Assembly: GCA_017481225.1 (NCBI GenBank)
Contig: JAFUPM010000038.1
Span: forward strand, 1-55,898
Source: Clostridia bacterium
Lineage (GTDB): Bacteria; Bacillota; Clostridia; Oscillospirales; CAG-272
DNA: 55,898 nucleotides
Direction of reading: 5' to 3'
Part shown: positions 11,301 to 30,438 of the stretch, in pieces
Layout: each line of letters starts with the position of its first letter
How positions within the stretch are numbered: the stretch's first letter is position 1
Made by a program: the position numbers and the translations under genes
The notes under the pieces: generated by a model
What the model was told of the DNA's origin: nothing
Database searches by the model: none
What the model saw: the letters and a program-made list of their open reading frames with translations, nothing else

Positions 11301-11386
11301 AAGACACCTCCCGTAGCGCAACCACACCTTTGTATGAGCGAATTTTGCTGCCTTGCGGCAAGCTTTTTCACGAATTATTTTAACAT

Positions 11387-11424
11387 AAAAAACAGGCAAA
11401 GTCAATAGCTCTGACTTTGCCTGT
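11387..11424 (-). terminator. Intrinsic terminator closing the phage-like operon
   Basis: 13-bp stem ACAGGCAAAGTCA/TGACTTTGCCTGT followed by a U run on the minus strand. Confidence 0.8.
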
Positions 11425-11444
11425 CCGCGCTTTACCGCGTGGCT

Positions 11445-11815
11445 TTATAAGTTAGCTCACATCCGTAGCTGAAATATAAGGCTTTGGCGCGGTTGGACTA
11501 GCTATTCTCCTCTGCGCGAGCCTCGGTGCGTGTAGCACTGAACCAGCTAATTTCTCCCTTGTGAGTCTCGGGACGTGTCGCGTTTTGAACTAATTAGGCG
11601 CTCATTCCGAGGCTCGTTGTGCATAACGTTATAAGCTATCTCACATCCGTAGCTGAAATATAGGGCTTTGGCGCGGTTGGACTAGCAAATCTCCTCTGCG
11701 CGAGCCTCGGTGCGTGTAGCGTTAAACTAGCTAATTTCTCCTACGCAAGCCTCGGTGCGTGTAGCACTGAACTAGCTAATTTCTCCTACGCAAGTCTCGG
11801 GACGTGTCGCGTTTT
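11445..11815. repeat. Degenerate tandem array of ~45-47 bp units with a higher-order 184-bp duplication
   Basis: Units like ACTAGCTAATTTCTCCTACGCAAGCCTCGGTGCGTGTAGCACTGA; 11445-11557 resembles 11629-11741; the last unit holds the stop codon of ORF 11772-12644. Confidence 0.85.
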
Positions 11816-12644
11816 CGGCATTTACGGTATCAATAAAGCCCTCGAGGAGCCTTGTTTTCGTCTCGAGCCAGCTAAGCCCTGCGCCCAAGGCGAAGGCGTA
11901 GCCCGAGCTGTAGCCCTTGAAGCCCACTATTGGGAGGGCAGAAAGCTTTAGTATGCCTTCGATAATCACCGAGGGGGTGAGGTCGGGCTTGGCTGTAAGA
12001 ATTACCGAAGCGGTGAAAAACATACACACGGTAGAGGGCAAAAGCTTAAGAAGTGACCCTACGCGCCTTGCGACGTTTGGATTTACAAGCTCTCGTGCAT
12101 CTGCGCCGTATCTTGAGAGAAGGGAGGTGGGAGTTATGCCGACGGGCTTCATTCTGTCCATTCGACGGAATGCCTTCGCCTCACTGGCTGTTACCCTTTC
12201 TCCCGCCTTGTATTTTTCGTAGGAAATAGCAGAGCAGCCCTCGCGACACAGATAGCTTCTGCGCCTGTAGCTTAGCTCTCTTTCAGAGTAGCTTGCAAGG
12301 TACTCGCGCAGCTTGTCTATATGTTCGGGCTGAATTTTGCGTCTCGCTTCCAGGTAACGGGCACTTGCCTCGCGATACTCCTCACTCTCCTCTCCTAACC
12401 TTTCACTTGCGTCCTCGAGGGAAAAGTAAATAAGGTAAGATGCAATAAGCATCACGAGAAGAGTAGTTGTAAATTCGGCAGTACCAAAGCCCGTTAAGGC
12501 AACGTCGGTAAAGGTAACGAGCGCTGCAACCAGAGCCGTTATTAAAGCTATAATCTTGCCGGAATTGGCGGCGATATAAGCATAGCCGCGTCGCAACAGT
12601 GAGCCGCCCTCCAAGAGGTCTCTATCAAAGCTATGCTCTTTCAT
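11772..12644 (-). CDS. Hypothetical membrane protein (2 TM, soluble region, 2 TM); last gene of the phage-like operon
   Basis: Hydrophobic pairs near both ends; ATG at 12644 overlaps the upstream TGA (ATGA). Confidence 0.75.
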   Translation of the reverse strand: MKEHSFDRDLLEGGSLLRRGYAYIAANSGKIIALITALVAALVTFTDVALTGFGTAEFTTTLLVMLIASYLIYFSLEDASERLGEESEEYREASARYLEARRKIQPEHIDKLREYLASYSERELSYRRRSYLCREGCSAISYEKYKAGERVTASEAKAFRRMDRMKPVGITPTSLLSRYGADARELVNPNVARRVGSLLKLLPSTVCMFFTASVILTAKPDLTPSVIIEGILKLSALPIVGFKGYSSGYAFALGAGLSWLETKTRLLEGFIDTVNAENATRPETCVGEIS

Positions 12645-13003
12645 TTCCTTCTGCCCCCTTTTGCAATGCGGAAGCATACGGCGCCGAGAATATTGCCCAC
12701 AAAGCCCATAAAGGATATGACCGTCATCTCCTCGGCAATCCGCGAGAGCGAGAAGAAAATAACAAATATGATAAGCCATACCGTATAGGAGGCGGCAGAG
12801 CGAAGTATTCTCCCAATATGCTTATACAGAGGAAGCATACAGAGAGCTAAAAGCAGAGCCGTACCGCCTGCCAGGGCGTGCTGTCCTCCCCGTTCAATCC
12901 ATAACGGAAAATAATTAAGTGTCGCAAGCAGCGGAGGAAGAATACAGAGCGAAAAACCGAGAATATGTAAAAGATACTTTACAAAATCGGGCTTTTTACT
13001 CAT
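12641..13003 (-). CDS. Small ~4-TM membrane protein, possibly holin-like
   Basis: 120 aa, four hydrophobic segments, basic C-terminus; overlaps both neighbours. Confidence 0.7.
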   Translation of the reverse strand: MSKKPDFVKYLLHILGFSLCILPPLLATLNYFPLWIERGGQHALAGGTALLLALCMLPLYKHIGRILRSAASYTVWLIIFVIFFSLSRIAEEMTVISFMGFVGNILGAVCFRIAKGGRRK

Positions 13004-13916
13004 CGCGAGCCAGCTCCTCTCTCATCTTAACAACTCGCGCACCAACCGCCTCCTTTTGATATTGAGGAAGCGATGACGACATAAAGATATCGTAGAGAAG
13101 GTCGATTTGAGATGCCATAATAATCTTGAATTTTTCGCGCTCGGACGAGTCGTTTTGAAGCCCTGAGAGCCTCTCTTCAATAGAGGTGAGGCTGCTTTTG
13201 TAGCCTTCAATGCTCTCGTCAAAGAGACTGAGCTTCTGAGCGATTTCCTTGTAGCCCTCGCCCATACCCACCTTAGTTTCGTCGGCGGACTTTTTTACCT
13301 TGTCCAAAGCACCCTCAATACCCGTTACGGCGCGTGTGAGGGCGGGGAGGAGCCCCTTTTTGTAGGCTATTGCAATAAGTAAGCTGGAGATAAACGCAAG
13401 GGTTGAAAAAATATCCCCGGCATTTTTCATTATTTCGCCGTAGATGATGGAGAATACATTTTTGTCATCTTCGTTTGAAGTGTCTGCACCTTCGGCTGAG
13501 GCTGCATCTTCGTCTGTAGGGGTGTCTTCTTTGTCAGAGTTTGTCTGTGTGTCTACAGTGCCGCTTTCGGTGCCGCTATCCTCATTTGAGGCAGGGCTAT
13601 CATTGCTTTCCGTTTCTGCTATGGCAACGTTATCGTTGCTCTCGGCTTCGGCTGCGGTCTCACCGTAGCTTTCAGCAGCGTTCTCGACGCCGTTATAGGC
13701 GGAGCCAACTACGGGTGTTTCCGCCACGGTAAGACTTCCGTTGCTTTCCGTTTCTGCTATGGCAACGTTATCGTTGCTCTCGGCTTCGGCTGCGGTCTCA
13801 CCGTAGCTTTTGGCTGTATTAGCTGCGAGGGCTGTTACGGGGAGCGCGGCAAAAAGCAGAGCAGAGAGCATTGCAATTGCGGTTGACTTTGCTAAAAATT
13901 TAAATTTCCTTTTCAT
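12996..13916 (-). CDS. Signal-peptide protein with acidic repeat ectodomain, one TM and a coiled-coil tail
   Basis: Sec-type signal MKRKFKFLAK...VTALAA, duplicated SYGETAAEAESNDNVAIAETESN, TM IFSTLAFISSLLIAIAY; AAGGA RBS. Confidence 0.8.
   Translation of the reverse strand: MKRKFKFLAKSTAIAMLSALLFAALPVTALAANTAKSYGETAAEAESNDNVAIAETESNGSLTVAETPVVGSAYNGVENAAESYGETAAEAESNDNVAIAETESNDSPASNEDSGTESGTVDTQTNSDKEDTPTDEDAASAEGADTSNEDDKNVFSIIYGEIMKNAGDIFSTLAFISSLLIAIAYKKGLLPALTRAVTGIEGALDKVKKSADETKVGMGEGYKEIAQKLSLFDESIEGYKSSLTSIEERLSGLQNDSSEREKFKIIMASQIDLLYDIFMSSSLPQYQKEAVGARVVKMREELARDE
13603..13810. repeat. Perfect 70-bp intragenic direct repeat (13603-13672 and 13741-13810)
   Basis: Identical copies spaced 138 bp apart, in frame. 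Confidence 0.92.
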
Positions 13917-13935
13917 TAATTTCCTTTCCCGTATA

Positions 13936-14331
13936 TCAGAACAGAGGCGTTCCGTATACGCTTTTTGATATTTTAGCTATCTCCCCCTCAAGCTCCGCAA
14001 CTCTCCGAGAAAGCTGCCTTTCGCGAAGGGATATCCTGCGGATAAAATCGGAGTCGGGAGATGCAGGCTCGAGTATACGTGAGCTTTTGATAAGCTTCGG
14101 CAGCTCGCGGCGGCAGTCCTTTAAAATGAGAATAGGCGTAAGCTCGCCGTCGTCGATAAGTCTGAGGTCGATTTTTGCGACACCCTCCTTGAGGCGCACC
14201 GTTACGTCACCTAAGGTTATGAAGCCGTCGCAGGGCTCAAGGAAGGATATTTCCGCCTCGTGTCCTGTGCCGCTTTTGTAATCAATAAGCTCTGCCTCTC
14301 CCTCGAAAAAGCCTATAACAATTTTAATCAT
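13936..14331 (-). CDS. Hypothetical protein with C-terminal coiled coil (phage-like operon)
   Basis: 131-aa ORF, TAATG-coupled to the upstream gene, GGAGG RBS. Confidence 0.75.
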   Translation of the reverse strand: MIKIVIGFFEGEAELIDYKSGTGHEAEISFLEPCDGFITLGDVTVRLKEGVAKIDLRLIDDGELTPILILKDCRRELPKLIKSSRILEPASPDSDFIRRISLRERQLSRRVAELEGEIAKISKSVYGTPLF

Positions 14332-14696
14332 TACAGCACCTCCTCGAGCTTTGTAAGTCTTGCTTCAAGATTTGCAAGAGCTGTGGCAAGAGAGGAATTT
14401 CCGACGGAAATAAGGCTTGCAAGATTGCCGTTTCCTATTGCCTCTATCAACTCGCTGAGCTTCATACCGTCGCCTACCGCCACCTCCATAGCCTCAAGCA
14501 CACAGCCCGTGGTGATGTCGTCTATAAGGCTGTTAAATCTTTCGGCTATCAGAAGCGGCAGCTTATCGAACGCCGCCTTCATCTGCGCCGGAGTGTAGCC
14601 CTTGCCGCCCATAGATGCGGGAGCAGTGGGTCTTGTGGGAAGAGAGGAAACCCTTAAGGGGGTTACCTCGCTTGATAGTAATTTGTGAGTTTTCAT
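14331..14696 (-). CDS. Hypothetical protein resembling the N-terminal attachment region of tail-fibre proteins
   Basis: Follows the nozzle-like gene; VSSLPTRPT...TPAQMKAAFD recalls fibre N-termini of Firmicute prophages (from memory, not searched). Confidence 0.5.
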   Translation of the reverse strand: MKTHKLLSSEVTPLRVSSLPTRPTAPASMGGKGYTPAQMKAAFDKLPLLIAERFNSLIDDITTGCVLEAMEVAVGDGMKLSELIEAIGNGNLASLISVGNSSLATALANLEARLTKLEEVL

Positions 14697-14720
14697 TTTA
14701 ACCTTTCTCGCCCTTTGGCG

Positions 14721-17396
14721 TTAAGTTGTGGTTTTCTTTAGTTTCCCTTTGATTTTGTACCTGTAGTAGATGGAATATACACCGAAGGGAGAACAAAATT
14801 CCTCTGTGTAAAGAGCAATTTGCTTTTCGTTCCACCCTTGACTTCTGTCATCAACACGGATAGCCGAAGCGCCTCCCGTCATAGCCGACATCTGCTCAAA
14901 GCCCATACTGCTGAAGGTCAGGTCGGAGGCGGGGGAAAGACCGTAGGTGACCTTGCCCTTATCGGTGCAAATATCGCAATACAGCCGACCCGTGTCGAAG
15001 TTTTTAAGCTTCAGAACGAGAGATGAGGGAACCGTTCGCTTCTCAAGATACCCGACGTCGCAGTCGTCCATAGCGGTTACGGCGGCATATTTTACCGCCC
15101 TTCCAGCAAAGGAATAGAAGCTCGGGTGAATTCGGTTGCCCATATACGAAGAGTATTCAGCCTCGTCAAAGCTCGCAGAGCCCTTGACACTCGGTGGCGC
15201 GACACCTCGCTTGTCGTTGTTGAAAACGCAAATGTCGCCGCACTCGGTACCGAAATAGAGGTGTATGCCGTCTCCGAGAGCCACCGTAGCCGGGGAAAAT
15301 TCTCCTCCCGAAAGCTCCTCGGTGGGGTGAACCAGGTACTTCGTTTCACCTACTAAGGTGTAGTAGGTAATGTTAGGACTGTGTATCAGCGAGGTGTATA
15401 CAGTTCCGATTGCAACCTCACCGGGATTATCCGCTACGGCAAAGCCCTCGAGAATTTCGTCGGAATATCTATACACCCTTCGTGCCTTCAGGTAGGTTCC
15501 GACACCCGAAACGTAGTACCAATCAAGGTCCGCGGTGCCTCCCGTAAGTCTGTCCTGTGCATTTCCAAGATACATTTTACCGCCGATAAGCACCGCAAGA
15601 TAGCTCTGCCATCGGGTGATAGACGCACTCTCCATATCCTCGTTAAGTAAAAGAGGAGATATATTACCCGAAATGCACCTCAGGTCTCTGTAATCGGAGG
15701 AGGAGCGCTTGAGCGTGGAGATGCCGACGGGGGAGATAAATACCGCGCCGCCGAGAAATCTGTAAGCCTCTCCAAGGACGGGAGTTTTGCTGTGGGAGAA
15801 GCTTTGAGGATAGCTTCTTTCCGTGCCTAAGCCCGAGGGCGTGTGGTAAATAATGCTTCCCGAGCCGTCGTCGTCGCTTTTGAATACTACCAAATCTCCG
15901 TCGTCCACAAGCAGGGATGTGACCTTCGAGCTTCCCTGACCGTCAATGAAATATGACTCTCTACCAAAGTACAGGGGCTGGGGCTTGCCCTCGCTGTCGA
16001 GGCTGCTGTAGAATACAGCACCCCCAAGGCTCGGATTGCCCGAGAGAAATATTCTTCCGTCATATACCGCGCACACGGTGGAGCCGAGTATTGCCGCCTG
16101 CCCGTTGCAGGACGGCGAAGCATTGCCGAAAAGCATTTTGCCAACGTCAATATCAGAAGCATTTCCGTATACGGTAACGACCCTTCCGTCTATTTCGAAG
16201 CGGTCTGCGAAGGTAAGCACAACCTCGCGCGTTGCGGGCTTGAAGGTGAAGGGAACGTTACTTCCGCCAAGGCTTACGCGATATACACCCTTCGCGTCCG
16301 TATGAAGAGGAATAGAAACAGCTACCTCTCTATCCTCCTCCACGTAAAGCACCTCGCGCTCTCCTACGGCGTCAATTCCTTCTATGACGGCATAGTCAAC
16401 AGCGCTACCCGTGTAGCGAATTTCACTCAGAGCATCGCAGCCATAGAACACGTTCGTCCCAAGACTTGAGACCCCAATACCGAGCTGAAAGTATTGGAGA
16501 GACTCGCAGCCCGAGAATACGAATTTGCCTATTTCCGACACCGTGGAGCTGAGGATTACCTTGGTGAGATTTTTGTCTCCCATAAAAGCGTATTTGCCTA
16601 TTTTTACAAGGCCTTTGTTGGTAATAAGCTCCGTTATAGTGAGGTTGTCGCGCAGGGCGGAGGGAGCTATCTCGGTTACGGTATAGCTTCTGCCACCTAT
16701 AGTAGCCCTTGCAGGTATGTAAAGGGGACCCTCGTCCCTTTGCCCGACACCCGTTACGGCGCAGGTCATTTTCTCGCTATCGGTTATTGAATACACAAGC
16801 TCGGGTGAGCCGAATGAAAACTCGGTTGAGGAGCTTACGGTTGTCACCTCGGTAAACCTTGGAGTCAGAAGATTGAGCTGCTCCAGCCGTCTGCCCTCCT
16901 TGTAGGTCGTGGGAATATAGTAGGGCGTGAGGTCCGACTCTGTTGCCTCGGTGACGTTGCCATCACCGTCAATAAGAAGAATTTTCTCACCGTCTATAAC
17001 GTAGAGAAGCCTGCCGAAGGTGAAGGCGCGGCTCTTTTCGTTTCTGAGGGTTGCAATAGGCTCGGGTGACAAGCCTCCGGCTAACAGCTTCTCCTCTTTA
17101 AATCGGTAGAGCTTAGTACCCGAGTGAACGAGAATATACTTTTCTCCGCTGAGGAGAGTTTGAGTGAAAATGGAGTTTATTCTCTCTCCGAGGGAATAGA
17201 GAATTCTAAAGCCCGGAATACTCTCTAAGGCTCCGTCACCCGACATAGGGTCAACGTACATATTCTCGGTATAGAGATATTTTTCCGAAGGCTTGCAGTC
17301 GGCAACAGAGGAGCAGATGCCGCCCATTTTTTCGTAGCTGCGAGTGTATTCCGCATCGGATTTGATTATATTTCTGTGAGTAGCCATTACGCCCAC
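14721..17396 (-). CDS. Putative short-tail nozzle / head-closure protein with an inserted BspA-type LRR domain
   Basis: 891 aa, beta-rich, placed after the adaptor as in podovirus gene order; LRR_5 repeats KIGKYAFMG, EIGKFVFSGCESL, SLGTNVFYGCDAL. Confidence 0.65.
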   Translation of the reverse strand: MGVMATHRNIIKSDAEYTRSYEKMGGICSSVADCKPSEKYLYTENMYVDPMSGDGALESIPGFRILYSLGERINSIFTQTLLSGEKYILVHSGTKLYRFKEEKLLAGGLSPEPIATLRNEKSRAFTFGRLLYVIDGEKILLIDGDGNVTEATESDLTPYYIPTTYKEGRRLEQLNLLTPRFTEVTTVSSSTEFSFGSPELVYSITDSEKMTCAVTGVGQRDEGPLYIPARATIGGRSYTVTEIAPSALRDNLTITELITNKGLVKIGKYAFMGDKNLTKVILSSTVSEIGKFVFSGCESLQYFQLGIGVSSLGTNVFYGCDALSEIRYTGSAVDYAVIEGIDAVGEREVLYVEEDREVAVSIPLHTDAKGVYRVSLGGSNVPFTFKPATREVVLTFADRFEIDGRVVTVYGNASDIDVGKMLFGNASPSCNGQAAILGSTVCAVYDGRIFLSGNPSLGGAVFYSSLDSEGKPQPLYFGRESYFIDGQGSSKVTSLLVDDGDLVVFKSDDDGSGSIIYHTPSGLGTERSYPQSFSHSKTPVLGEAYRFLGGAVFISPVGISTLKRSSSDYRDLRCISGNISPLLLNEDMESASITRWQSYLAVLIGGKMYLGNAQDRLTGGTADLDWYYVSGVGTYLKARRVYRYSDEILEGFAVADNPGEVAIGTVYTSLIHSPNITYYTLVGETKYLVHPTEELSGGEFSPATVALGDGIHLYFGTECGDICVFNNDKRGVAPPSVKGSASFDEAEYSSYMGNRIHPSFYSFAGRAVKYAAVTAMDDCDVGYLEKRTVPSSLVLKLKNFDTGRLYCDICTDKGKVTYGLSPASDLTFSSMGFEQMSAMTGGASAIRVDDRSQGWNEKQIALYTEEFCSPFGVYSIYYRYKIKGKLKKTTT

Positions 17397-18226
17397 CCGT
17401 CAGTATCCCGATACGATGTGTCGGGAACACTTACCCTGCTTTTCTTTTCCTCCTCTGCGGCTTCTCTGTACCGCTTTCCGTAAAGCTCCGCAAGCTCGGG
17501 ATAGGAGTCTACGTAAACGTAGGACGCCACCAGCAGCGCGAGTAGATGCTCGCAGCCCGTGGGGAGGTCGATTTGCGCATCGGGAGCCTCCGCGAAGCTT
17601 CTTTTCGGGGTCCTCTTATAGACTATGTAAACGTCCTCTTTTAAGTCCGCGGGAATAGAAATGCGCTCACCGTCAAGCGTTACCTCGGGCAGTCGCTTGC
17701 CGCGTGAGTCCGTGGGGTAACTAACGAAGGAGTGAAAATCTCCCACAAGCTCCGTCATATCAAGAAGCCTCTTGCTGCCACCGTCGGGTATATCCTCGAC
17801 GTTGTCGCTGAAGCGGGAGCCGAAGCACACAAGGTCGGTGACGGTGAAGGCGAACTGCCCCTCGAAAATTATGCTGCCGCCCGAGGAAAGGAAGCCCTTA
17901 TGCCTTTCTCTTGCCGCATTAAACGAGCGTGTAAATTTGTTGTCTCCGTCAACTACGGTATACCTGCCCTCGCCCGATACGAAGAAGCTGTAGCATACAC
18001 CCGAAAGGGGAAAGATTGCTCTCTCCCCAGAAGGATGCCGATAAATCGGAATACGGCCAAGGGGCTTTGTGACGCGGCTCGGAATGACCAGCGTTCCAAC
18101 CACGCGCCTCTCTGAGAAAAGCTGTCTTTTGCTTCTTTCAAGGGCACAGAGAAACGCCTCGTCACACTCAAGCGCACCGTCGTAGCCAAGGGCAGAAACT
18201 TCACTTAAAAGTTCTTTGACAGTCAT
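17387..18226 (-). CDS. Putative head-tail adaptor protein
   Basis: Follows the capsid gene; MTVKELL N-terminal helix and IDLP..CEHLLALLVAS C-terminal helix typical of adaptors. Confidence 0.6.
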   Translation of the reverse strand: MTVKELLSEVSALGYDGALECDEAFLCALERSKRQLFSERRVVGTLVIPSRVTKPLGRIPIYRHPSGERAIFPLSGVCYSFFVSGEGRYTVVDGDNKFTRSFNAARERHKGFLSSGGSIIFEGQFAFTVTDLVCFGSRFSDNVEDIPDGGSKRLLDMTELVGDFHSFVSYPTDSRGKRLPEVTLDGERISIPADLKEDVYIVYKRTPKRSFAEAPDAQIDLPTGCEHLLALLVASYVYVDSYPELAELYGKRYREAAEEEKKSRVSVPDTSYRDTDGWA

Positions 18227-18278
18227 TGGTGATTACCTGTCCTTTCTATGTAAAATAGCCGTTTTTGACAACTATTAT

Positions 18279-19334
18279 TTACATAGGAATAGAATCAAGG
18301 TAGCCGTCGTTAGCGTCAACGGCGAGTATCATATGCTTGTATGAACCGAAGCCAACGCCAAATCTGCAGCGTCCGTTCCAGATGTAATTACCGGTGTGGT
18401 TATCTACCCAGTTGGTTACGGTGAGGGGTACGCGGTTGAAGAACATATTACCGCAAAGGTTCTTGTTCGCCTCGGAGGACATAACTATAAGTCTGTCGTC
18501 TGTGGACTGCCAGCCGGGGAGAACTACGATGTTCCAATTTGCGTAGTGGAGGTTAATATCGTTGTTGGAGCTGCCTACAACGTAGGGTGTGCCGCAAACC
18601 TTCTTTGCGATAGCCTCGGCTATGGGTCTGTTGCCGGGGAGGATAATGGTATCCGCGGTGTAGCCGAGAGCCTCACCGGTCTCGTCAACCATATTACGAA
18701 GCTTTACGGAGAGGTCATAAAGGCTCTCCTCGAAAACGGTTGCGGAGGGGGTACGGTCATCACCGTGACGGAAGATATCGCCGTAGTAGAAGTTGGACTG
18801 AACGCCGCTCTTGTTGCTCATCTGGTCACCCCATACGTGCTCGGAGTGGAACACGGGCAGACCGTCGCCTGTGGTGAGGTCAAGGCTTGCGTTGCCGAAG
18901 GGGCATCTGTCGAACTCGCCGTTTGTAAGGGCGGTTAAGCAGAGCTTGTTGATGGTCTTATAATATGCGCGGACAAAGTTTTCTGCCCTGTGCTTTGCAT
19001 CGACGGCAATGCCGTAGTTTGCGTCCTCCATCATCTCTGCGGTGATGGTGAACTCCTTCATAAACTGAATATGCTCGATGAACTTGTGGTAGGTCTCGCT
19101 GACAGAGTCAACGTCTGCGCCGCCGCCCTCGGGCGCAGCCGAGAAGATGCTGAACTCGTTGCCGCCGACTATGGTCTCGCCGAATCTGTTGCTCTTTTCA
19201 ACGTTGAAAAGAGATACTGCGCCGCTTGCGGTGGCGAGAAGGTCGCTCTCGCGCTCGATTATCATCTTGATAGGTGTTTCAAGCTTGCCTATTGCGGCGG
19301 AGGTGTTGCCTGTGCTTTTAGAGTAAATTATCAT
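18279..19334 (-). CDS. Major capsid protein (HK97 fold, Mu gpT-like)
   Basis: 351 aa in capsid position; FTITAEMMED, DGLPVFHSEH, ADTIILP and GRCRFGVG resemble gpT-type capsid motifs. Confidence 0.8.
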   Translation of the reverse strand: MIIYSKSTGNTSAAIGKLETPIKMIIERESDLLATASGAVSLFNVEKSNRFGETIVGGNEFSIFSAAPEGGGADVDSVSETYHKFIEHIQFMKEFTITAEMMEDANYGIAVDAKHRAENFVRAYYKTINKLCLTALTNGEFDRCPFGNASLDLTTGDGLPVFHSEHVWGDQMSNKSGVQSNFYYGDIFRHGDDRTPSATVFEESLYDLSVKLRNMVDETGEALGYTADTIILPGNRPIAEAIAKKVCGTPYVVGSSNNDINLHYANWNIVVLPGWQSTDDRLIVMSSEANKNLCGNMFFNRVPLTVTNWVDNHTGNYIWNGRCRFGVGFGSYKHMILAVDANDGYLDSIPM

Positions 19335-19363
19335 TTGTTTATCCTTTCTTGCTTAGCTTGTAA

Positions 19364-19777
19364 TTATACGAACCTTACGCAAACCTTTCCGTACCGTTCG
19401 TTTGAGTCTGAGTAGTTTGAAAATATCGTAGCTACTCCGCCGTCCTTGACGTTCTTGATACCGACGGCGTATCCTTCTACTATGTTAAGAGCATACTTTT
19501 CGCCGACAAGGAAGGTGGAGGTGTAGGAGTTACCCACGGTTTCTACAATCACGTCGGGAGTAAGGGGGATTGCGGGTACGGAGTAGTTATAAGGCGCATT
19601 CTCTACGTCCGCAAGAATAATGTGGGTGGGCATATCGGTCTGTGTGCAGTTGACGGGCCAGCCGCTCTTGAACGTAACGAGAGTGCCTTTCTTGTAGGAT
19701 TCGCCCTCCTTGAGGTAAAGGTAGGTAATCTCGGGCGCGCCCTTTGAGGAATTAAGTATTTTTGTTACTTTGAACAT
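19364..19777 (-). CDS. Putative capsid decoration/cement protein
   Basis: 137 aa, beta-rich, between scaffold and capsid genes; strong RBS. Confidence 0.55.
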   Translation of the reverse strand: MFKVTKILNSSKGAPEITYLYLKEGESYKKGTLVTFKSGWPVNCTQTDMPTHIILADVENAPYNYSVPAIPLTPDVIVETVGNSYTSTFLVGEKYALNIVEGYAVGIKNVKDGGVATIFSNYSDSNERYGKVCVRFV

Positions 19778-19805
19778 TGTTTTTCCTTTCTTTTTTTATT
19801 GGAAT

Positions 19806-20621
19806 TTAGTTATTTTGGTTTGTGACCTTGGCGTAAAGGCGTTTGATTTCGCTTTCGGGAAGGTCGGAGAATAAAGCTCTGGCGCAGCTCATCTCCCAGC
19901 TTGTCATTCCCGTGGAATGAACCCTCGCTCCCGAGGGAACCTCGGTGACAAGGTGGGCTCTGTTGTCGGCTGCTTTTGGCTTTGAGGTGGCAAGATAAGC
20001 CTCCCTCGGGGTAAGACCCAAAGCGCGGAGCTGCGAGTATCTTTTGTCAGAGGTAATGCGGCACAGGTCCTTGGCGCGCATATCGGGGAATTCAAGGCAG
20101 AGCTTGAATACGTCCTCGGTATTGTTTACCTGCGCGCCCGCCGTCGAGCGCTCTGACCTGTTGGAGGGGATTTTGTCGGTGTCCGGGATAGATTCCGAGC
20201 TATTCGGTTCTGCCGATGCGCCGTCGCCCGATAGGGGTGAATTCTCGGAGTCTTTAGCATCGCCCGACACGTAGCCACCATCGAAGGGGGTAGCCTCGCT
20301 TGTGACAGAGCTTCCCTCAAATGGAGCAGCTTCACTTGCAACGGAGCCGCCATCGAAGGGAGAAGCCTCGCTCACGTTTAAGCCACCCTCGAAGGGAGAA
20401 GCCTCACTTGCAATGGAGCTGCCCTCGAAGGGTGCAGTCTCACTTGCAACGGAGCCACCCATTAAGGGAGAAGTCTCGCTTGCGTTGAAGCCACCCTCGA
20501 AGTGAGAGACCTCCTCCGATGCCGCTTTTTTTGACACGGGGTAGGCGTCTGTGGTGATAGCCTCCTCGCTTGTGGCACCTTCAGCCTCGCGGCTCTGCTC
20601 CTTTTCAAACAGCTGCTCCAT
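19806..20621 (-). CDS. Putative capsid scaffolding protein with 12-aa repeats
   Basis: Acidic disordered N-terminus, helical C-terminus, located between portal and capsid genes. Confidence 0.55.
   Translation of the reverse strand: MEQLFEKEQSREAEGATSEEAITTDAYPVSKKAASEEVSHFEGGFNASETSPLMGGSVASETAPFEGSSIASEASPFEGGLNVSEASPFDGGSVASEAAPFEGSSVTSEATPFDGGYVSGDAKDSENSPLSGDGASAEPNSSESIPDTDKIPSNRSERSTAGAQVNNTEDVFKLCLEFPDMRAKDLCRITSDKRYSQLRALGLTPREAYLATSKPKAADNRAHLVTEVPSGARVHSTGMTSWEMSCARALFSDLPESEIKRLYAKVTNQNN
20262..20501. repeat. 36-bp coding tandem repeat, about 6.5 copies
   Basis: FEGGFNASETSP/LMGGSVASETAP/FEGSSIASEASP/FEGGLNVSEASP/FDGGSVASEAAP/FEGSSVTSEATP/FDGG. Confidence 0.88.
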
Positions 20622-20758
20622 TACTTACCAGCCTTGCTTCTCAAGTCAGATGAGGACTTGATTACGGTGGACTTCGGGCCGCTCTTAGGGCTGTTAGGAG
20701 CCTTTATGGGACCCGGATTAACGTTTGCATAAGGGTTGTTTTTGATTTCCTGTTTCAT
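20621..20758 (-). CDS. 45-aa basic small protein (missing from the ORF track)
   Basis: MKQEIKNNPYANVNPGPIKAPNSPKSGPKSTVIKSSSDLRSKAGK; AAAGGA RBS; TAATG overlap with the scaffold start. Confidence 0.78.
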   Translation of the reverse strand: MKQEIKNNPYANVNPGPIKAPNSPKSGPKSTVIKSSSDLRSKAGK

Positions 20759-20818
20759 TGTTCAGTTCCTTTCTTTGTTAAGGGGTTGTGTGAATTTTTA
20801 CACCTCGGTGTGCCTATG

Positions 20819-21006
20819 TTAGGCTTTCGCTTGCTCGCTGTCAGCGCGTTCAGTCGCACCCTCCGCAGCACCTTGGGCAGCTATTTGCGCCGCGCTCTCG
20901 GTGCGCTTTAGGTTAGGCTTTCGCTTGCTCGCTGTCAGCGCGTTCAGTCGCGCCCTCCGCAGCACCTTTTTCGGCTATTTGCGCCGCGCTCTCGGCGTGC
21001 TTTAGG
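20819..21006. repeat. 94-bp tandem duplication of the portal 3' end including its stop codon
   Basis: 20819-20912 vs 20913-21006, 87/94 identical. Confidence 0.92.
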
Positions 21007-22718
21007 TCGGATATCGCTTGGCTTTCCTCGGAGCTATCCTCTCTGAGCTTTATCAGGCGGCGGAAATACTCAACGTTTTCCTTGGCGAAGGGGTAGCTCG
21101 CCCTCTCTTGGGATTGCCAATAGCAAAGGAGAGTATGGGGGTCGGATACGTCTCCGAGGGTTCCTGACTCAAGGTTCGCAAGATTTCTCTCCCACAGAGC
21201 CTCGCGGGAGTAGTCACTTCCCGAGTTCAGGTCAACAGAGAAGAGATATGCGTCGGAGTAATAGAGAAGTCCGTCACATCCCGTCTCTATAAAGTCGTGA
21301 CGGTTGAAGCTCTCGTCGCATACAAGCCCGTATGGGTCCTTGTAGGTTAAGAGCCTCGGCTCGTCGGCGAAGGCGAGGTAATGCTCGAAGATAATCTTGT
21401 AAAGCCTTGAATATGCGTGGTATTTCATACGCTTTTTCGTCTCAAGTCGGCTGCTTGCTCTGGCAATCTTCAGCTGCCTTGCCAAGCCCGATTCCGCCTG
21501 GACGGTTCTGTCCGTACCCTGGAGGGCGTCGGTTATTCCAAGGACTCTTTTCGCCTGGTCGTAGAGCCTGTCTGCCTCGGCTATATCCTGGGATATGTCG
21601 GGGGTCGTGTCGATTTTTCCGTAATTTTCCACGCTTTCCCCGGGGCGCATTCTTATGACCTCGCCGAACACAGAATTGCCAAGGGTAACAGAGGCGTCCT
21701 CGGGTATTACGGGAGTCACTCCAGCGCGTAAAAGCTTCTTTAATATCCTTGACTCAACCTTGTTTATCGCCTGCTGCTGAGGGCGTATTCTCTCGCAGTC
21801 GGAAAGTCCGAGGAGGGTGTCGGATATTCTGGTATTGCGCCTTATAACGATAGGCATAGTGCCGGGGGTGTAGTACTTTATATGGGTGTCCTCACCCACA
21901 AGCTCGAAGGGGGTGTCGAGGTATTCGGGCTCAAAGCTTTTGCAGCCGCACTCACTCTCGGGCTTTTTGCAGCTTTTGCAAACTGCAGCCTTCCTTGAAT
22001 AGTACTTCGGAAGGTCGGAGAGTAAAAGCTCTCCCGAGAATACCAGCTTGCCGATATCTCCGTCCGAGTCTCGGTACAGGGCAATAATCACCGTAACGGT
22101 GTCCTCGTCGGTGCCAAGCTCCGAGTATCTGTATTCACATTCGGAAAGCGACACCTCCTCGGGCTCAACGCCGTAACGGAGCACAAGCTCGCTTTTGGTG
22201 GTGGTGAAGCGGAGGAAGCAATACTGCATACAGTCCACATCGCATATGCTGGGCTGTGGAATAAAATCCAAGGGGGATATGCAATGAATCTTAACTCCGC
22301 CCGCGGCCCCCGAGGAGCGAATACCGCTGTCCCATTCCACGTACCAGATGCTGCCGCCGTAGATGTAGGTGTATCTTTCGTCTAAGTCGTTGAGGGACTC
22401 AAAGGGAAGCCTTTCTCTGACGGTGCGGCAAAGCCTCTCGATAGCGTGGGCGCATCTCTCGCCCTTCTCGGTATATATTTCCGGCTCAGCCTTGGGGTAG
22501 GGGATATCCGGGTCTATCTGGCTTTCTATGACCTCGTAGGTGACGTTTCGGACGGTGGTCGCACGCTCGCTCGAGTTGTCTATTTCGTAGGAGCCGAGAT
22601 ATTGTCGCATATGCACCTCAAGCTCCGAGCATACCTCCGAGTGAACCTCTTTCGCGGCGTGATACAGCTCCTTATATCTTTCAAAGAAAGCCTGTCTTTC
22701 GGGTTTTATGTTTTTCAA
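20913..22718 (-). CDS. Phage portal protein
   Basis: 601 aa directly after TerL (TTGA overlap); helical; QQQAINKVESRILKKL stem-like segment. Confidence 0.75.
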   Translation of the reverse strand: MKNIKPERQAFFERYKELYHAAKEVHSEVCSELEVHMRQYLGSYEIDNSSERATTVRNVTYEVIESQIDPDIPYPKAEPEIYTEKGERCAHAIERLCRTVRERLPFESLNDLDERYTYIYGGSIWYVEWDSGIRSSGAAGGVKIHCISPLDFIPQPSICDVDCMQYCFLRFTTTKSELVLRYGVEPEEVSLSECEYRYSELGTDEDTVTVIIALYRDSDGDIGKLVFSGELLLSDLPKYYSRKAAVCKSCKKPESECGCKSFEPEYLDTPFELVGEDTHIKYYTPGTMPIVIRRNTRISDTLLGLSDCERIRPQQQAINKVESRILKKLLRAGVTPVIPEDASVTLGNSVFGEVIRMRPGESVENYGKIDTTPDISQDIAEADRLYDQAKRVLGITDALQGTDRTVQAESGLARQLKIARASSRLETKKRMKYHAYSRLYKIIFEHYLAFADEPRLLTYKDPYGLVCDESFNRHDFIETGCDGLLYYSDAYLFSVDLNSGSDYSREALWERNLANLESGTLGDVSDPHTLLCYWQSQERASYPFAKENVEYFRRLIKLREDSSEESQAISDLKHAESAAQIAEKGAAEGATERADSEQAKA

Positions 22719-24076
22719 TTTGGTTCTCCGTATTTATCTATAAGGTATTTTTTCTCTGCCCGACCTGCCGCCCGATAGTCCTCCCACATATCCTTGCTCC
22801 ACGGTGTTTTTTTCGCCGCCTTCTCACGGGACGGACGGGAGTGAAAAATGGCAAATCCGCGCAAAGCGTCGGGGGCGTGTGTAATTTCGTGGGGCTCCGT
22901 CGAGCAATCCGTGGGGCGCAGCTTGTCTACGGTCAGGGCAGGGAGGCATCTTATTATCTCGCGGCAGGTATCAAAAATTCTCAAGCCGCAAGAGACGCCG
23001 TCTCCCCGTAAAAGCTCCTTCACCGCAAGCCAGCCGCACTCTCTGTCGTTTGAGGTTTTGGTGAAGTGAACTCCGTACTCCGAGAAAAGCGTAGCCTTAC
23101 TTTTGCCTGACTCCTGACTTCTGCCCCACAGGTCGGGAGGTGCCAGCGTTGCGTACACGTCCTCGTCCTTTGCGGTTCTTTCGAGTATCCCTCGCGCCGC
23201 CTCGGATATGGGAAGGTTTGACTCGCAAAACTCTCTGTAAACGTAAGCCACACCGTCGGGCGAAAGTGCTATCCACAGGCAGGCGAGGCGGTCAAGGCCG
23301 TAATCGAGGGTCCTGTATCTTCTCCAATGGGAGGGTATCTCAAAGGGGGAAATAACGTGCCGAGCTTCGTTGAATTCGTCGAAGTACTGACCCTCGAAAA
23401 TGTTCCAATCGCCGAAAAGAAGCGCGCGCTTTTCTCTTTCGGGCAGGGCAGCGAGCCTTGCGCGGTATTCGGGGTCGCCCTCGGCGAGGAAGCGGTTATC
23501 ATCAAGAAGCGAGGGTAGAAATATTCTCTTTAAGCCGTTTTCCCCAAGGAAGGCTGTCCTTGGAGCCGACGGCTCGATAAATCGCCGCTTGACCCACACG
23601 TGTCCCACACCTCCCGGGTTTGTCGAGGACTTAATCTGCTTTGGGTAGCCGTTAGCTCCTCTCACTCTTGATAACAGGTAGACGTATTGGTTCTCGGTGA
23701 AGTGGGTCAGCTCATCGAAGCGCACTACGTCGTATTCCGCGCTCTGGTACTGATAGACGTCGTTTTCGGTAGCCAGATAGCCGAAATCAATCGTGGAGCC
23801 GTTTTTGAACCTGCCTACGTGAGAGGAGGAGTTGAAGGAATATATCTCTCTCGGGAAAAGGGCGAGAGAGGTGCGAATGAGGGATTTATCAAGCTCGGGG
23901 AAGGTCCTTCTCAGAACCAGCTGCTTTGAGCGAGGATACCTCAGGGCAAAAATCAGCGCGTCCGCCATCTGCCCGAAGGATTTGCCCCCTCCCGCAGCTC
24001 CACCGAAGAGAACCTCCCCTTCGGAAGAATCAATAAATTCCTTCTGTTTTTTCGTAAGCGTAAGTGATATATTCAT
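22715..24076 (-). CDS. terL: Terminase large subunit
   Basis: Q motif, Walker A GGAAGGGKS, Walker B VVRFDE, coupling motif STNPGG, nuclease LDYG and HAPDALR. Confidence 0.93.
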   Translation of the reverse strand: MNISLTLTKKQKEFIDSSEGEVLFGGAAGGGKSFGQMADALIFALRYPRSKQLVLRRTFPELDKSLIRTSLALFPREIYSFNSSSHVGRFKNGSTIDFGYLATENDVYQYQSAEYDVVRFDELTHFTENQYVYLLSRVRGANGYPKQIKSSTNPGGVGHVWVKRRFIEPSAPRTAFLGENGLKRIFLPSLLDDNRFLAEGDPEYRARLAALPEREKRALLFGDWNIFEGQYFDEFNEARHVISPFEIPSHWRRYRTLDYGLDRLACLWIALSPDGVAYVYREFCESNLPISEAARGILERTAKDEDVYATLAPPDLWGRSQESGKSKATLFSEYGVHFTKTSNDRECGWLAVKELLRGDGVSCGLRIFDTCREIIRCLPALTVDKLRPTDCSTEPHEITHAPDALRGFAIFHSRPSREKAAKKTPWSKDMWEDYRAAGRAEKKYLIDKYGEPN

Positions 24077-24163
24077 AAAGGTAGAAAACCGTTTTCGAGC
24101 TTAGCTTATACCCGTGTCGTGCTTTTATTAGCTTTTTCGTGCTTTGCCGAGCTTTTGCGGCGT

Positions 24164-24502
24164 TTATTCCACGACCTCAAGTCTTAGGGCTATATCTCTG
24201 TCCTCTGAGTCACCGTCGCCGAATTCACAGCCGATGAGGAACTTGACAAATGAGGGGTCGAACCGACGTGTCAGCGCGTTGTCAATAAGATAATCTCTTC
24301 GGATTTCGCTGCATTCTCGGTACGCCCGCTCGAACCGTTCCTTGCTTCTCCATCTCTCGACGTCCTCTCGGGTCGCGCCTATTGTAAGCGCGAATTTATC
24401 GAAGCTTGGCGCACCCTGTCCGTCGAAGGCTCTGAAGAAGCGGTACATTGCGGCAGGATATTCGGGGCTGTACTTTTGCCGTCCCTTTCTTTTTCCTTCC
24501 AT
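24164..24502 (-). CDS. Putative terminase small subunit
   Basis: 112 aa immediately upstream of TerL; HTH-like FALTIGATREDVERW; ATG at 24502 after GGAAAGGA. Confidence 0.7.
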   Translation of the reverse strand: MEGKRKGRQKYSPEYPAAMYRFFRAFDGQGAPSFDKFALTIGATREDVERWRSKERFERAYRECSEIRRDYLIDNALTRRFDPSFVKFLIGCEFGDGDSEDRDIALRLEVVE

Positions 24503-24580
24503 ATATTTTTCCTTTCCCACGGTGATTTTTCCCTGTGCCTCGTTGGTACCTTTTCGAGGCGGGTCTCACCGTCCAACAGT

Positions 24581-24609
24581 ATTGTAGCAAATCTTTAGGA
24601 ATTTGTAAG
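24581..24609 (-). promoter_or_regulatory. Putative sigma-A-like promoter of the phage-like operon
   Basis: CTTACA-N17-TACAAT with an extended TG. Confidence 0.55.
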
Positions 24610-24713: not shown

Positions 24714-25505
24714 TTACTTTTGTCCATTATTATTTGGCTGTTTTGTAACGTATTTTGAAGGGGATATCCCCGTGTGCTTTTTGAAATCCCTTGAGAAATC
24801 GTAGAGGCTCGCGTAGCCCAAAGCTGCCGCGACGTCGGTTAAGGTGCCGTAGTCACCACGCAGAATTTCCTTAGCTCTTTGTATTCGAAGACCTTTTGCA
24901 TAGGCTATGGGCGATACACCCGTAACGGAGGTGAAAAGCTTTCTGAAATATACAGTTGAAAGCCCTGTTAGCGCGGCGAGGGAGTCGTTGGTAATAGGCT
25001 TATCATAGTTTTCCGATACGTATTCAAGGGCTACGGCTATCTTCTGCTGCTTTTGAGACGGGTTATAATCCTCTCCAACAGCTGAGGCGAGAGCGAGGAT
25101 AATGGAGTAGGTGTCCCGAATACCTTCAATTTGAGTAAGACTCCCCTTCATATTTCGCTTGCGCTCAAGCTGCTTGAACATTTTCAGTATTTTCTCACCG
25201 TGACGTACGTTAAACACGATAGGCTCTTGAAGCTCTAAGTCACTTTCAAACTCGATAATTGAGAAATGCCCCGACCTTGTACAGTGCCAATCGTAGCTGC
25301 ACCCCTTCGGCAAAAGCGCAATGTGAGAAGCATCCGAGAGGTATCTCCTTTGCCTTACCGTATACACGGTTTCTCCCTCGTATTTCATTAATACAGCCCA
25401 TCTCGGTCTGTTGCATCTTCTGCCCTTAGCACCATCGGAATTGTAGAAGGTGTAAGCGGAATGAATACCTGTGATGAGCAGATTTGATAAACAATCTAAA
25501 TTCAT
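24714..25505 (-). CDS. AraC-family transcriptional regulator
   Basis: C-terminal double HTH: YFRKLF...SP and VAAALGYASLYDFSRDFKKHTGISPSKY. Confidence 0.93.
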   Translation of the reverse strand: MNLDCLSNLLITGIHSAYTFYNSDGAKGRRCNRPRWAVLMKYEGETVYTVRQRRYLSDASHIALLPKGCSYDWHCTRSGHFSIIEFESDLELQEPIVFNVRHGEKILKMFKQLERKRNMKGSLTQIEGIRDTYSIILALASAVGEDYNPSQKQQKIAVALEYVSENYDKPITNDSLAALTGLSTVYFRKLFTSVTGVSPIAYAKGLRIQRAKEILRGDYGTLTDVAAALGYASLYDFSRDFKKHTGISPSKYVTKQPNNNGQK

Positions 25506-25539
25506 ATTCCTCGAGGCTCCTCCGTCTTTTTACAAACGT

Positions 25540-25638
25540 ATTATACCATAATAGAAAAGCATTGGCAAGAGTTTTGTATCAAAATTGATAAATTGTAGCA
25601 TAATTGATATTTACCGCGAGAATTGCTTGTGCTATACT
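25540..25638. promoter_or_regulatory. Divergent promoters for araC and the catabolic cluster
   Basis: Minus strand TTGCCA-N17-TATAAT (25540-25568); plus strand TTTACC-N17-TATACT (25610-25638). Confidence 0.65.
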
Positions 25639-25656
25639 CTCATTGGAGGTGAGTAT

Positions 25657-26481
25657 ATGAAACAAAGATTATCACAGCTTTATGCTCCCGCTATAGCAGG
25701 AGTAGTAAAGGCAAAATCCGTTAAAGGTGCGATAGCCGAAATTAAAAATTGCACTTGTGACGGCGCAACGATGATTGATTTACATATGTCCTGTCTTGAC
25801 AGCAGTGACACTGAAAGCTTGAAGCAAATTATTACTTCATCTAAGCTCCCCGTTTTAGCGCTGAATTACAACAACCTATATGAAGGTGGGACTGCAGGAT
25901 TATCGGAAGAGCAAAGAACAGCCAGCTTCTTGAGGGCAGCAGAGGCGGGAGCCGCAGGCGTTGATATTCAGGGCTATACCTTTCATTTGCCGTCCAGGGA
26001 TGGCTTTTTTGGAGAGGATAAATATTCCTTTACCAGGGGTAATCCCAAAGAGATCGTAACCGACGAGAAAATTATTTCAAAGCAATGTGAGCTGATCGAA
26101 AGGGTTCACTCCATGGGGGCAGAGGTGCTTCTTTCCTGTCACCCGGGAATTACAATGACTTCTGAGCAGGTAGTTGATCTTGCGCACTTCTTGGAAAAGC
26201 GAAATCCCGACATTATCAAGATAGTTACCAAGGCAGAAAACGAAGAAGATCTGGCAGAAAGCATACGCACGATACTTTTGCTCAAAAAAGAGATTAAAAC
26301 GCCCGTTGCCTATCACGCAAACGGAAAAGCGGGTATGCTTTCCAGAATCATCAATCCTCTGCTTGGCGGGCAGATTGCATTCTGTGTCGATCGCTATACC
26401 GAGGCGAGCGTGATGGAGCAGATCGATCTGCGGACGGCGGCGGCAGTCGTTCAAAATGTGAAAAAAATTACGGAGGACTAA
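25657..26481 (+). CDS. Type I 3-dehydroquinate dehydratase-like TIM-barrel protein (divergent)
   Basis: VDIQ, LLSCH (SxH His), DIIKIVTKA (Schiff-base Lys) and GMLSRI; start at ATG 25657 after GGAGG. Confidence 0.65.
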   Translation: MKQRLSQLYAPAIAGVVKAKSVKGAIAEIKNCTCDGATMIDLHMSCLDSSDTESLKQIITSSKLPVLALNYNNLYEGGTAGLSEEQRTASFLRAAEAGAAGVDIQGYTFHLPSRDGFFGEDKYSFTRGNPKEIVTDEKIISKQCELIERVHSMGAEVLLSCHPGITMTSEQVVDLAHFLEKRNPDIIKIVTKAENEEDLAESIRTILLLKKEIKTPVAYHANGKAGMLSRIINPLLGGQIAFCVDRYTEASVMEQIDLRTAAAVVQNVKKITED

Positions 26482-26482
26482 T

Positions 26483-27232: not shown

Positions 27233-27271
27233 CTAATACTCCCTCGCACAGTATTAGATTGGAGAGATAAA

Positions 27272-29348: not shown

Positions 29349-29425
29349 AACAATATATCATACCCCGTGTATGAATTTAACGGTGATAAAGCCGAAGATT
29401 TAATAGATTAAAAAAGGAGCTAATT

Positions 29426-30430: not shown

Positions 30431-30438
30431 GGTGAAAA

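Follow-up and report, generated by a model that had tools for sequence, protein, structure and literature searches.

To our knowledge, very few gene transfer agents (GTAs) are known outside the Alphaproteobacteria, and FpGTA of Faecalibacterium, reported only in 2026, is the first from a gut commensal. Of the other systems that invite comparison, RcGTA of the Alphaproteobacteria is siphovirus-like, with tape-measure and tail genes, scattered accessory loci and known host regulators, PBSX of Bacillus subtilis resembles a myovirus in its contractile tail, retains a repressor and lysis genes, and is a killer particle that transfers no DNA, and the capsid-forming phage-inducible chromosomal islands (cf-PICIs), patchy in their distribution, encode an integrase, an alpA-type regulator and replication functions and no tail. 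Here we describe a cluster of 14 phage-like genes on contig JAFUPM010000038.1 (55,898 nt, analysed over its full length and referred to as the window) of an uncultured Clostridia bacterium (GCA_017481225.1, which we refer to as G000; 63.5% complete). We read the cluster as a domesticated, podovirus-derived particle operon of the gene-transfer-agent type, a reading to which we give a probability of roughly 60%, and which would make this locus the second gut-commensal case after FpGTA, argued here purely from comparative genomics. Throughout, "the genus" is the uncultured gut Clostridia genus of G000, known from upwards of 120 species-level genomes recovered from the guts of ruminants, yak and humans; every relative is a metagenome-assembled genome of an uncultured gut organism.

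The cluster resembles RcGTA in being a phage-derived set of head and packaging genes with no replication or integration genes, inherited vertically under purifying selection, and differs in that its tail is of the podovirus type and no regulator of it is known. Like PBSX, it is a defective phage-like element of a Gram-positive bacterium, and PBSX packages host DNA, as this cluster may also do; the contractile tail, repressor and lysis genes of PBSX set it apart from a podovirus-type cluster. The cf-PICIs are likewise compact islands (~10–15 kb) that encode their own TerS, TerL, portal and capsid, whereas the window cluster has no integrase, regulator or replication genes and does encode an adaptor and a nozzle. 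The missing mobility genes and the presence of these two tail genes set the cluster apart from a cf-PICI.

The closest likeness is to FpGTA, described (Nat Commun 2026; PMC12946183) as an operon of 10.5 kb and ten ORFs that nearly every member of its genus carries. It encodes TerS, TerL, portal, scaffold and capsid along with podovirus-like proteins, and has no integration or replication genes. The same paper describes 40 nm, tail-less-looking particles with 8.4–8.9 kb of DNA, on particle, DNA-size and proteomic evidence, and a second, 5.5-kb operon of baseplate, fibre, receptor-binding protein, holin and endolysin genes, and says that the FpGTA TerS is without a DNA-binding domain (PMC12946183). 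By layout, and with our cluster known from its genes alone, the two are alike as single operons of ~10 kb with the same order, found genus-wide in gut Clostridia; the first ten ORFs in the window, from terS to the gene of a 121-aa protein, span 10.2 kb. They differ in their genes as follows: a counterpart of the second fibre/lysis operon was not found in the 63.5% complete G000 with hidden Markov models (HMMs) of the cluster's own families, three membrane-protein genes lie inside the same operon only in the window cluster, and a helix-turn-helix (HTH)-like core is kept in the window TerS. The cluster is most likely GTA-like, of the kind represented by FpGTA. An earlier note on this DNA, made from the sequence without database searches, knew of no characterised GTA with such an architecture in Clostridia, which FpGTA, as that source describes it, has made outdated. 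In the literature searched, FpGTA was named only in PMC12946183 and nothing closer on Clostridia GTAs or gut podovirus-like elements was found among the papers listed; no protein named Faecalibacterium was among the matches listed in capsid searches made with the cluster and with its counterpart in [Clostridium] cellulosi.

An intact operon, nearly universal in its genus

The operon consists of 14 intact minus-strand ORFs running head to tail from position 24520 to 11772 of the window, with no internal stop when the ORFs are read, in the order TerS, TerL, portal, a 45-aa protein, putative scaffold, putative cement protein, capsid, adaptor, nozzle, a 121-aa protein, a 131-aa protein and three membrane proteins. 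The terL and portal genes overlap by 4 nt, and overlaps also occur at the 45-aa/scaffold, adaptor/nozzle, 121-aa/131-aa and 306-aa/120-aa junctions. One promoter-like site and two terminators bound the operon. Upstream of terS lies CTTACA-17-TACAAT with a TG (24581–24609, minus strand, 9/12 consensus match), the terminator of araC precedes the operon (24692–24671, from a terminator search), and an intrinsic terminator with a 16-pair stem followed by a T run closes it (11390–11426, minus strand); the start of the helicase gene called at 11405 is probably over-called. These 14 co-oriented ORFs without frameshifts, in this order, and the promoter and araC terminator had been recognised in the earlier note and are borne out, whilst the closing terminator, which it had placed at 11387–11424, is present with its coordinates corrected to 11426–11390.

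Pfam, PHROGs and NCBIfam scans of the window gave no match to a domain of an integrase, recombinase, repressor or replication protein, no att-type direct repeats in the window bracket the cluster, and there are no tRNA genes in the window. The set of a temperate prophage (integrase, repressor, replication module, att sites) is not present at the cluster, and the window around it is ordinary chromosome, including jag, yidC and rnpA, both as originally proposed. A scan of 72 ORFs in the flanks and inserts of 12 other loci likewise gave no integrase. Upstream of terS, one Phage_rep_org_N gene (G001) and one small HTH_3 gene (G009) were found, and no regulator or other ORF is conserved there across loci. 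The gene in G001 (L021:17442–18446, 1.1e-37) immediately precedes terS and could be a relic of an ancestral replication module.

Of 120 other species genomes in the genus, 112 have the capsid gene, as do 43 of the 44 genomes that are at least 90% complete (G000 counted). A full-length TerL match at 65–74% identity was found in 22 of the 24 other species of the genus that were searched for it. We read loci from 33 other species in detail: the seven genes counted from terS to nozzle are intact in 29 and cut by contig ends in three more. An internal stop occurs in only one of the listed capsid matches (a TAG in G127). The cluster is nearly universal in the genus, not strictly so, and neither the patchy presence nor the pseudogenisation that the earlier note had raised as contrary signs is seen. 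A capsid profile search was filled by close relatives: of its 1941 matches, the best 120 listed are all 65–71% identical. Among phage records, four in INPHARED match the capsid and two the portal, at 24–31% identity, with two unannotated faecal fragments amongst them and no cultured relative, and nine contigs of 4.5–12 kb in IMG/VR are all just the cluster, with no complete viral genome; IMG/VR contig L036 joins the cluster to host ABC-transporter genes. TerL relatives in other families of the order (40–51% identity) were considered as the same cluster and rejected. In G026 the TerL stands alone, in G040 a serine integrase interrupts the terS–TerL pair, and the TerL relatives of G027 and of contig C93 of G000 belong to other phage types.

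In clade A, the cluster adjoins a DinG-like helicase gene in G000 and in nine other genomes, with luxS–PNP–glyS beyond the helicase in several. The pattern CTTAC-N16-19-TAnWWT lies upstream of terS in 15/17 clade-A loci, 0/14 clade-B loci and 0/2 phage-lineage loci; with both strands counted, the entire window has a single copy of it, and 0.7% of shuffled sequences contain it. In two sister species (G013, L078 and L014; G074, L079) the cluster is circularly permuted with all genes intact, in the order scaffold, capsid, nozzle, fibre, membrane genes and then terS–terL–portal. A gene for an 805-aa pectate-lyase-like protein follows the portal in G013.

In the closest pair of genomes (G018 and G020), eight element genes exhibited dN/dS of 0.06–0.31 at unsaturated dS (0.43–0.79), two flanking host genes 0.06–0.08 (dS 0.42–0.55) and RpoB 0.05 (dS 0.35). 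These rates show purifying selection and an element of the same age as its host flanks, and the dN/dS check that the earlier note had proposed gave values that are not neutral. Between G000 and its nearest relative (G006), TerL, TerS and capsid share 75%, 63% and 57% identity, and the flanking host proteins of pdp, helicase and cdd share 74%, 69% and 64%, a similar degree of divergence; the adaptor (37%) and nozzle (42%) evolve faster. A concatenated TerL, portal and capsid tree has 7 of 13 splits in common with an RpoB tree of the same 16 genomes (label shuffles: mean 0.27, maximum 3 in 2000), and the patristic distances of element and RpoB correlate only moderately (r = 0.58); G023, which has an internal TAG in RpoB, was left out of this test. 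The codon usage of the cluster falls within the host–host null (Jensen–Shannon divergence from host genes 0.0081; 95th percentile 0.0105), with the resident prophage at 0.0135.

These results support a conserved, selected and immobile short-tailed particle module, not a decaying prophage, and the earlier note's view of a domesticated short-tailed system is upheld by the presence of the cluster across the genus, its dN/dS and its intact ORFs. They likewise support a phage module stripped of mobility that selection has maintained from roughly the time the genus arose.

Packaging, head and tail proteins

All genes of the cluster lie on the minus strand. TerS, the small terminase subunit (118 aa, 24164–24520), matches phrog_3064 at 1.7e-9, and its match to PF16677 (GP3_package) at 7.9e-5 is under the Pfam cut-off. 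The HTH-like core PSFxKFAxxIG...L..W is retained in 14/14 aligned copies of TerS, and a basic N-terminal extension of ~40 aa is present in the 2 aligned phage-lineage copies and absent from the 12 aligned compact-cluster copies. TerL, the large subunit (453 aa, 22715–24076; Terminase_6N 2.5e-9, phrog_979 3.3e-48), has 100 invariant columns in an alignment of 38 sequences, including Walker A (G25–S33), Walker B (E122) and the nuclease aspartates D258 and D403, so that the ATPase and nuclease motifs first read from the window sequence prove to be kept throughout. The portal protein (601 aa, 20913–22718) matches phrog_156 at 6e-25, whilst its score against SU10_portal, 29 bits, is just short of the 30-bit cut-off.

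The 45-aa protein, whose gene (20621–20758) precedes that of the scaffold, is also found in the phage lineage, with tblastn matches in L016, L039, L046, L050 and L076. The 271-aa protein that follows (19806–20621) is a putative scaffold by its position between portal and capsid, with no family match; it contains acidic 12-aa repeats (36-nt repeats in the DNA), and conservation is confined to C-terminal residues ~170–268. Gene position also makes the 137-aa protein (19364–19777) a putative decoration or cement protein: its nearest named ESM Atlas clusters are "phage cement" at 0.90–0.91, a weak lead only, and a PDB profile search gave no matches. The major capsid protein (351 aa, 18279–19334) is of the Phage_capsid_4/P22-coat-like type; it matches phrog_371 at 6.3e-7 and shares 24% identity (tblastn) with the annotated capsid protein of Pelagibacter phage HTVC027P. 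Its feature-based ESM Atlas neighbours are Phage_capsid_4 and Mu gpT clusters, PF25209 is precomputed on its close homologues, and a PDB profile search yielded no useful match.

To the capsid gene succeed two genes whose products were recognised by structure, from AlphaFold2 (AF2) models folded with alignments of 29 adaptor and 28 nozzle orthologues. The model of the head-to-tail adaptor (279 aa, 17387–18226; predicted local distance difference test, pLDDT, 89.9) matches over its full length, at VIA Z 10.6–13.3, the adaptor chains of the Shigella phages B2 and Moo19 and of A4, N4, KHP30, DEV, SU10 and VP1; unrelated folds reach Z ≤ 9.2 and match only the beta-sandwich. By sequence, a PDB profile search gave the adaptor no useful match (N4 30 kDa protein at E = 0.086). 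The model of the T7-gp12-type tail nozzle (891 aa, 14721–17396; pLDDT 87.4, predicted template modelling score 0.80) has podovirus nozzle or tail-tube chains as all of its best 29 Foldseek matches in the PDB, including cyanophage A4 (3.9e-18), Carin-1, Kp9, LME-1, SU10, T7 gp12 and P22 gp10. Judged from these models, the cluster encodes a T7/P22-type podovirus tail, with an adaptor and a gp12/gp10-type nozzle after the capsid gene. The nozzle contains an inserted BspA-type leucine-rich repeat (LRR) domain at residues ~197–328 (LRR_5 at 5.6e-15, also in the PDB profile search), the LRR motifs show in the nozzle consensus, and the LRR-bearing nozzle is kept in 28/28 aligned orthologues. No solved podovirus nozzle in the Foldseek listing is described with an LRR domain; here this domain may bind the receptor in particles that have no distal fibre.

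The 121-aa protein (14331–14696) is homologous to the N-terminal anchor domain of tail fibres or needles: its homologues form the N-terminus of 290–1124-aa fibre-like proteins in clade B and in the phage lineage, and are free-standing proteins of 96–136 aa in clade A. The 131-aa protein (13936–14331) has a C-terminal coiled coil and no family match, and is kept in part of the genus. Three membrane proteins, so named from hydrophobic stretches in their translations, complete the operon. These are a 306-aa protein with acidic repeats, read from the translation (12996–13916), a 120-aa protein (12641–13003) with ~4 hydrophobic helices, also read from the translation, which is a candidate holin-like or ejection protein, is present in 24/33 loci and has a dN/dS of 0.10, and a ~291-aa protein (11772–12647; SLATT_4 at 4.9e-4, a weak match below cut-off). 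This last ORF was called from 12779 and probably starts at Met45, near 12647, because its orthologues align from residues 45–49.

A prophage on contig C93 of G000 carries homologues of all three membrane genes (that of the 120-aa gene at 4.1e-34), with the ~291-aa homologue adjoining its integrase. As the trio also ends the late operon of this prophage, it is a module common to unlike phages of this host. It occupies the usual position of the lysis cassette in related prophages, and in the gene order of P22 and T7 the same late position could hold ejection proteins instead; by this analogy the three proteins could be a lysis module or, equally, ejection proteins. Taken as a whole, the cluster is laid out like a full short-tailed virion from which only cargo proteins are absent.

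Phage relatives and other compact clusters

Phage-type loci (L042/L043, L046/L047 and L179–L181) have the same gene order as the cluster, with a 700–1200-aa protein and a giant protein of 2040–3245 aa (2442–3245 aa within the genus) between portal and scaffold. The giant proteins carry ART-PolyVal, PBECR3, LPD38 or LPD3 domains, and VRR-NUC, C5 methylase, DUF3799 and reverse transcriptase (RT) genes are neighbours. These polyvalent-protein podophages share with the cluster homologous TerS, TerL, portal, 45-aa, scaffold, capsid, adaptor, nozzle, fibre-anchor and membrane proteins, and differ from it in their giant proteins, long fibres, the four neighbouring gene types and a patchy distribution. 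Outside the genus, the capsid profile was found in 17 of 148 genomes, covering 13 of the 81 other genera of the family that were sampled, and the strong capsid matches in those genera are also phage-type, with ORFs of 2040–2700 aa. In the TerL, portal and capsid trees alike, a single branch with support of 99–100 splits phage-type from all compact copies. The earlier note had counted homologues inside full prophages against domestication, and such homologues do occur in full phages; they form this separate branch, which fits a reading of ancestor and descendant. Of the phage-type loci, that of G126 carries an RVT_1 gene among its tail-fibre genes (L042:8728–9780, 1.4e-12), which suggests a diversity-generating retroelement.

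Compact clusters were also found elsewhere. Genus g23, of the same family, has one in all three genomes sampled (L175, L176 and L177), with no giant gene, comprising terS, terL, portal, scaffold, capsid, (cement), adaptor and nozzle, with a divergent type of TerL and the cement gene after the capsid. In the complete genome of [Clostridium] cellulosi (G033, L024:8027–18753), from another family of the order, a compact cluster stands behind a sigma-factor gene and continues with an HTH/TerS-like protein, TerL (44% identical), portal (phrog_156), a 262-aa protein, a 292-aa capsid (phrog_267), two small proteins, a 674-aa nozzle-like virion protein and a 533-aa protein, flanked by metabolic genes. 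These two cases suggest that compaction into clusters without giant genes is recurrent. In G000 itself, a search with HMMs built on the protein families of the cluster gave no second locus other than the C93 prophage, in a genome 63.5% complete and with endolysin families not searched genome-wide. That prophage (L027, L173 and L174) has a tyrosine integrase, two S24/HTH repressors, a Rep-like protein, a TerL (39% identical), a P22-like portal, a BppU-like baseplate protein and an LPD23 polyvalent protein.

Proposed origin and function

We propose that an ancestor of the genus captured a phage of the lineage that still infects the genus and family, and that the captured copy would then have lost its integration, regulation and replication genes together with the giant polyvalent proteins between portal and scaffold. 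What remained, the genes for head, packaging, adaptor, nozzle and membrane proteins, would thereafter have been inherited vertically under purifying selection. The conserved promoter ahead of terS would drive transcription. A procapsid would form from the portal, scaffold, capsid and cement proteins, TerS and TerL would fill it by headful packaging, and the adaptor and LRR-bearing nozzle would close the particle, with the 121-aa anchor protein as a cap; the three membrane proteins would act as a holin-like release module or as ejection proteins. Within this mechanism the locus can neither excise nor replicate, and the packaged DNA must therefore be chromosomal. The identities of the genes, their immobility, conservation, selection and co-divergence with the host, and the phage relatives are observed; production of particles, the DNA that they contain and its transfer are inferred.

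More tentatively, domestication here may have been independent of FpGTA, such that one lineage of polyvalent-protein podophages was stripped more than once into single-operon GTAs in gut Clostridia, with a receptor-binding LRR built into the nozzle and one clade without the distal fibre. The instances would be this genus, g23 and possibly the sigma-factor-led cluster of [Clostridium] cellulosi. Taken as a whole this joint claim is possible and somewhat doubtful. Were it to hold, GTAs would have arisen repeatedly in the order and would be common there instead of rare, and a large uncultured genus of animal and human guts would exchange chromosomal DNA through such particles. As a domesticated form and still-active phage relatives stand side by side, the steps of domestication become readable, namely the loss of the giant polyvalent proteins, of lysogeny and replication genes and of the N-terminal arm of TerS, the fixation of a promoter, the amelioration of codon usage and the truncation of the fibre. 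The HMMs and the promoter motif could also be used to seek host-DNA-filled particles of the genus in gut viromes.

Alternative explanations

Several observations weigh against reading the cluster as a GTA. No cluster protein matches an endolysin or holin family in NCBIfam, and no large ejection or core protein is recognisable in the cluster; the earlier note had seen neither an endolysin nor a large ejection protein, and both statements stand, the former as a gap in a GTA model and the latter as the main difference from the phage relatives. The constant neighbourhood for which it had proposed a test holds in clade A, and clade B has at least four different chromosomal contexts. One clade-A genome (G118, L088) keeps terS to adaptor and has lost the nozzle through to the membrane genes, with the helicase gene following directly, and capsid and portal are both absent in five species, one of them 96% complete. 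The approximately unbiased (AU) test rejects identical element and RpoB topologies (p = 0.0004), so the congruence sought in the earlier note extends to the shared splits and not to the whole tree. Purifying selection and host tracking would, moreover, also be expected of an active host-specific temperate phage, and some genomes of the genus hold a second, phage-type capsid copy (43–54% identity). Expression has a weak hint: in one metatranscriptome run, 98–99% identical contigs were found on the adaptor, capsid, portal and TerL genes, and DNA may be present in an RNA library. In run X14, 11335–15336 and araC are left uncovered by RNA contigs, and contigs cannot show absence. Finally, the HTH-like core of TerS could mean that packaging begins at a specific pac site and not at random.

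Such a pac site is central to an explanation that we regard as unlikely, in which the locus is a locked-in defective prophage whose TerS recognises a site in or near the cluster, with headful packaging running one way into the neighbouring chromosome as in lateral transduction. It would account for the retention of the HTH-like core in 14/14 aligned TerS copies, for a cluster unable to excise and for its fixed position in clade A, but no pac site was identified, the basic N-terminal arm of the two aligned phage-lineage TerS copies has been lost, and in clade B and in G013 and G074 the neighbourhood and gene order differ with the genes intact, which argues against selection for moving particular neighbouring genes. 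Rather less probable is a particle with a role other than transfer, such as a PBSX-like killer or an adhesion, decoy or vesicle-like function, in which DNA is packaged only to stabilise the head. The loss of the distal fibre in clade A, where the 121-aa protein is the anchor domain only, and the lack of recognisable ejection proteins suit such a role, which the FpGTA authors also leave open for their own system (PMC12946183). Against it, podovirus-type particles have no contractile or killing apparatus, the ATPase and nuclease residues of TerL are invariant, and an LRR-bearing nozzle in 28/28 aligned orthologues is as expected for adsorption and delivery.

Slightly below this we place a helper-dependent satellite, that is, an island that forms its own capsids and depends on the related polyvalent-protein phages for mobilisation, with replication, lysis, fibres and ejection proteins all coming from them. 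Phages whose adaptor, nozzle and membrane genes are homologous do exist in the same genus, the G000 prophage holds homologues of the three membrane genes, and the cluster is without an endolysin; yet the cluster also has no integrase, replication or excision genes and no att repeats, its presence is near-universal at a site fixed in clade A, its dS equals that of the host flanks, and the second, phage-type capsid gene occurs in a minority of genomes only. A decaying prophage remnant without function is disfavoured by the evidence and strikes us as highly improbable. The partial deletion in G118, the five species without capsid and portal, the TAG stop in the G127 capsid and a 94-nt duplication scar after the portal are all of the kind that decay would leave, but they stand against ORFs that are intact across species with saturated synonymous sites, dN/dS of 0.06–0.31, a conserved promoter and host-like codon usage.

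Minor features of the locus

Further features were seen at both edges of the cluster and within it. The upstream neighbours of terS in G006 are pdp, cdd and deoB, which in the window stand 8 kb further on. The intervening block of the window (24714–32323; araC, dehydroquinase-like, SDR, GFO/IDH/MocA, amidohydrolase, epimerase, ADH and EamA genes) is absent in G006, and is therefore an indel beside the cluster. At the other edge, a ~137-nt repeat occurs three times (63–87% identical) at 11445–11810 of the window, covering the 3' end of the last membrane gene and a 346-nt untranslated stretch before the terminator. Within the operon, a repeat search found a 94-nt tandem duplication of the portal 3' end (20815–21002, 91% identical) in the spacer between the portal and 45-aa genes, at the exact site where the phage relatives hold the giant polyvalent-protein genes. 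A contig of run X4 lacks 187 nt at this duplication, whose copy number therefore varies between strains.

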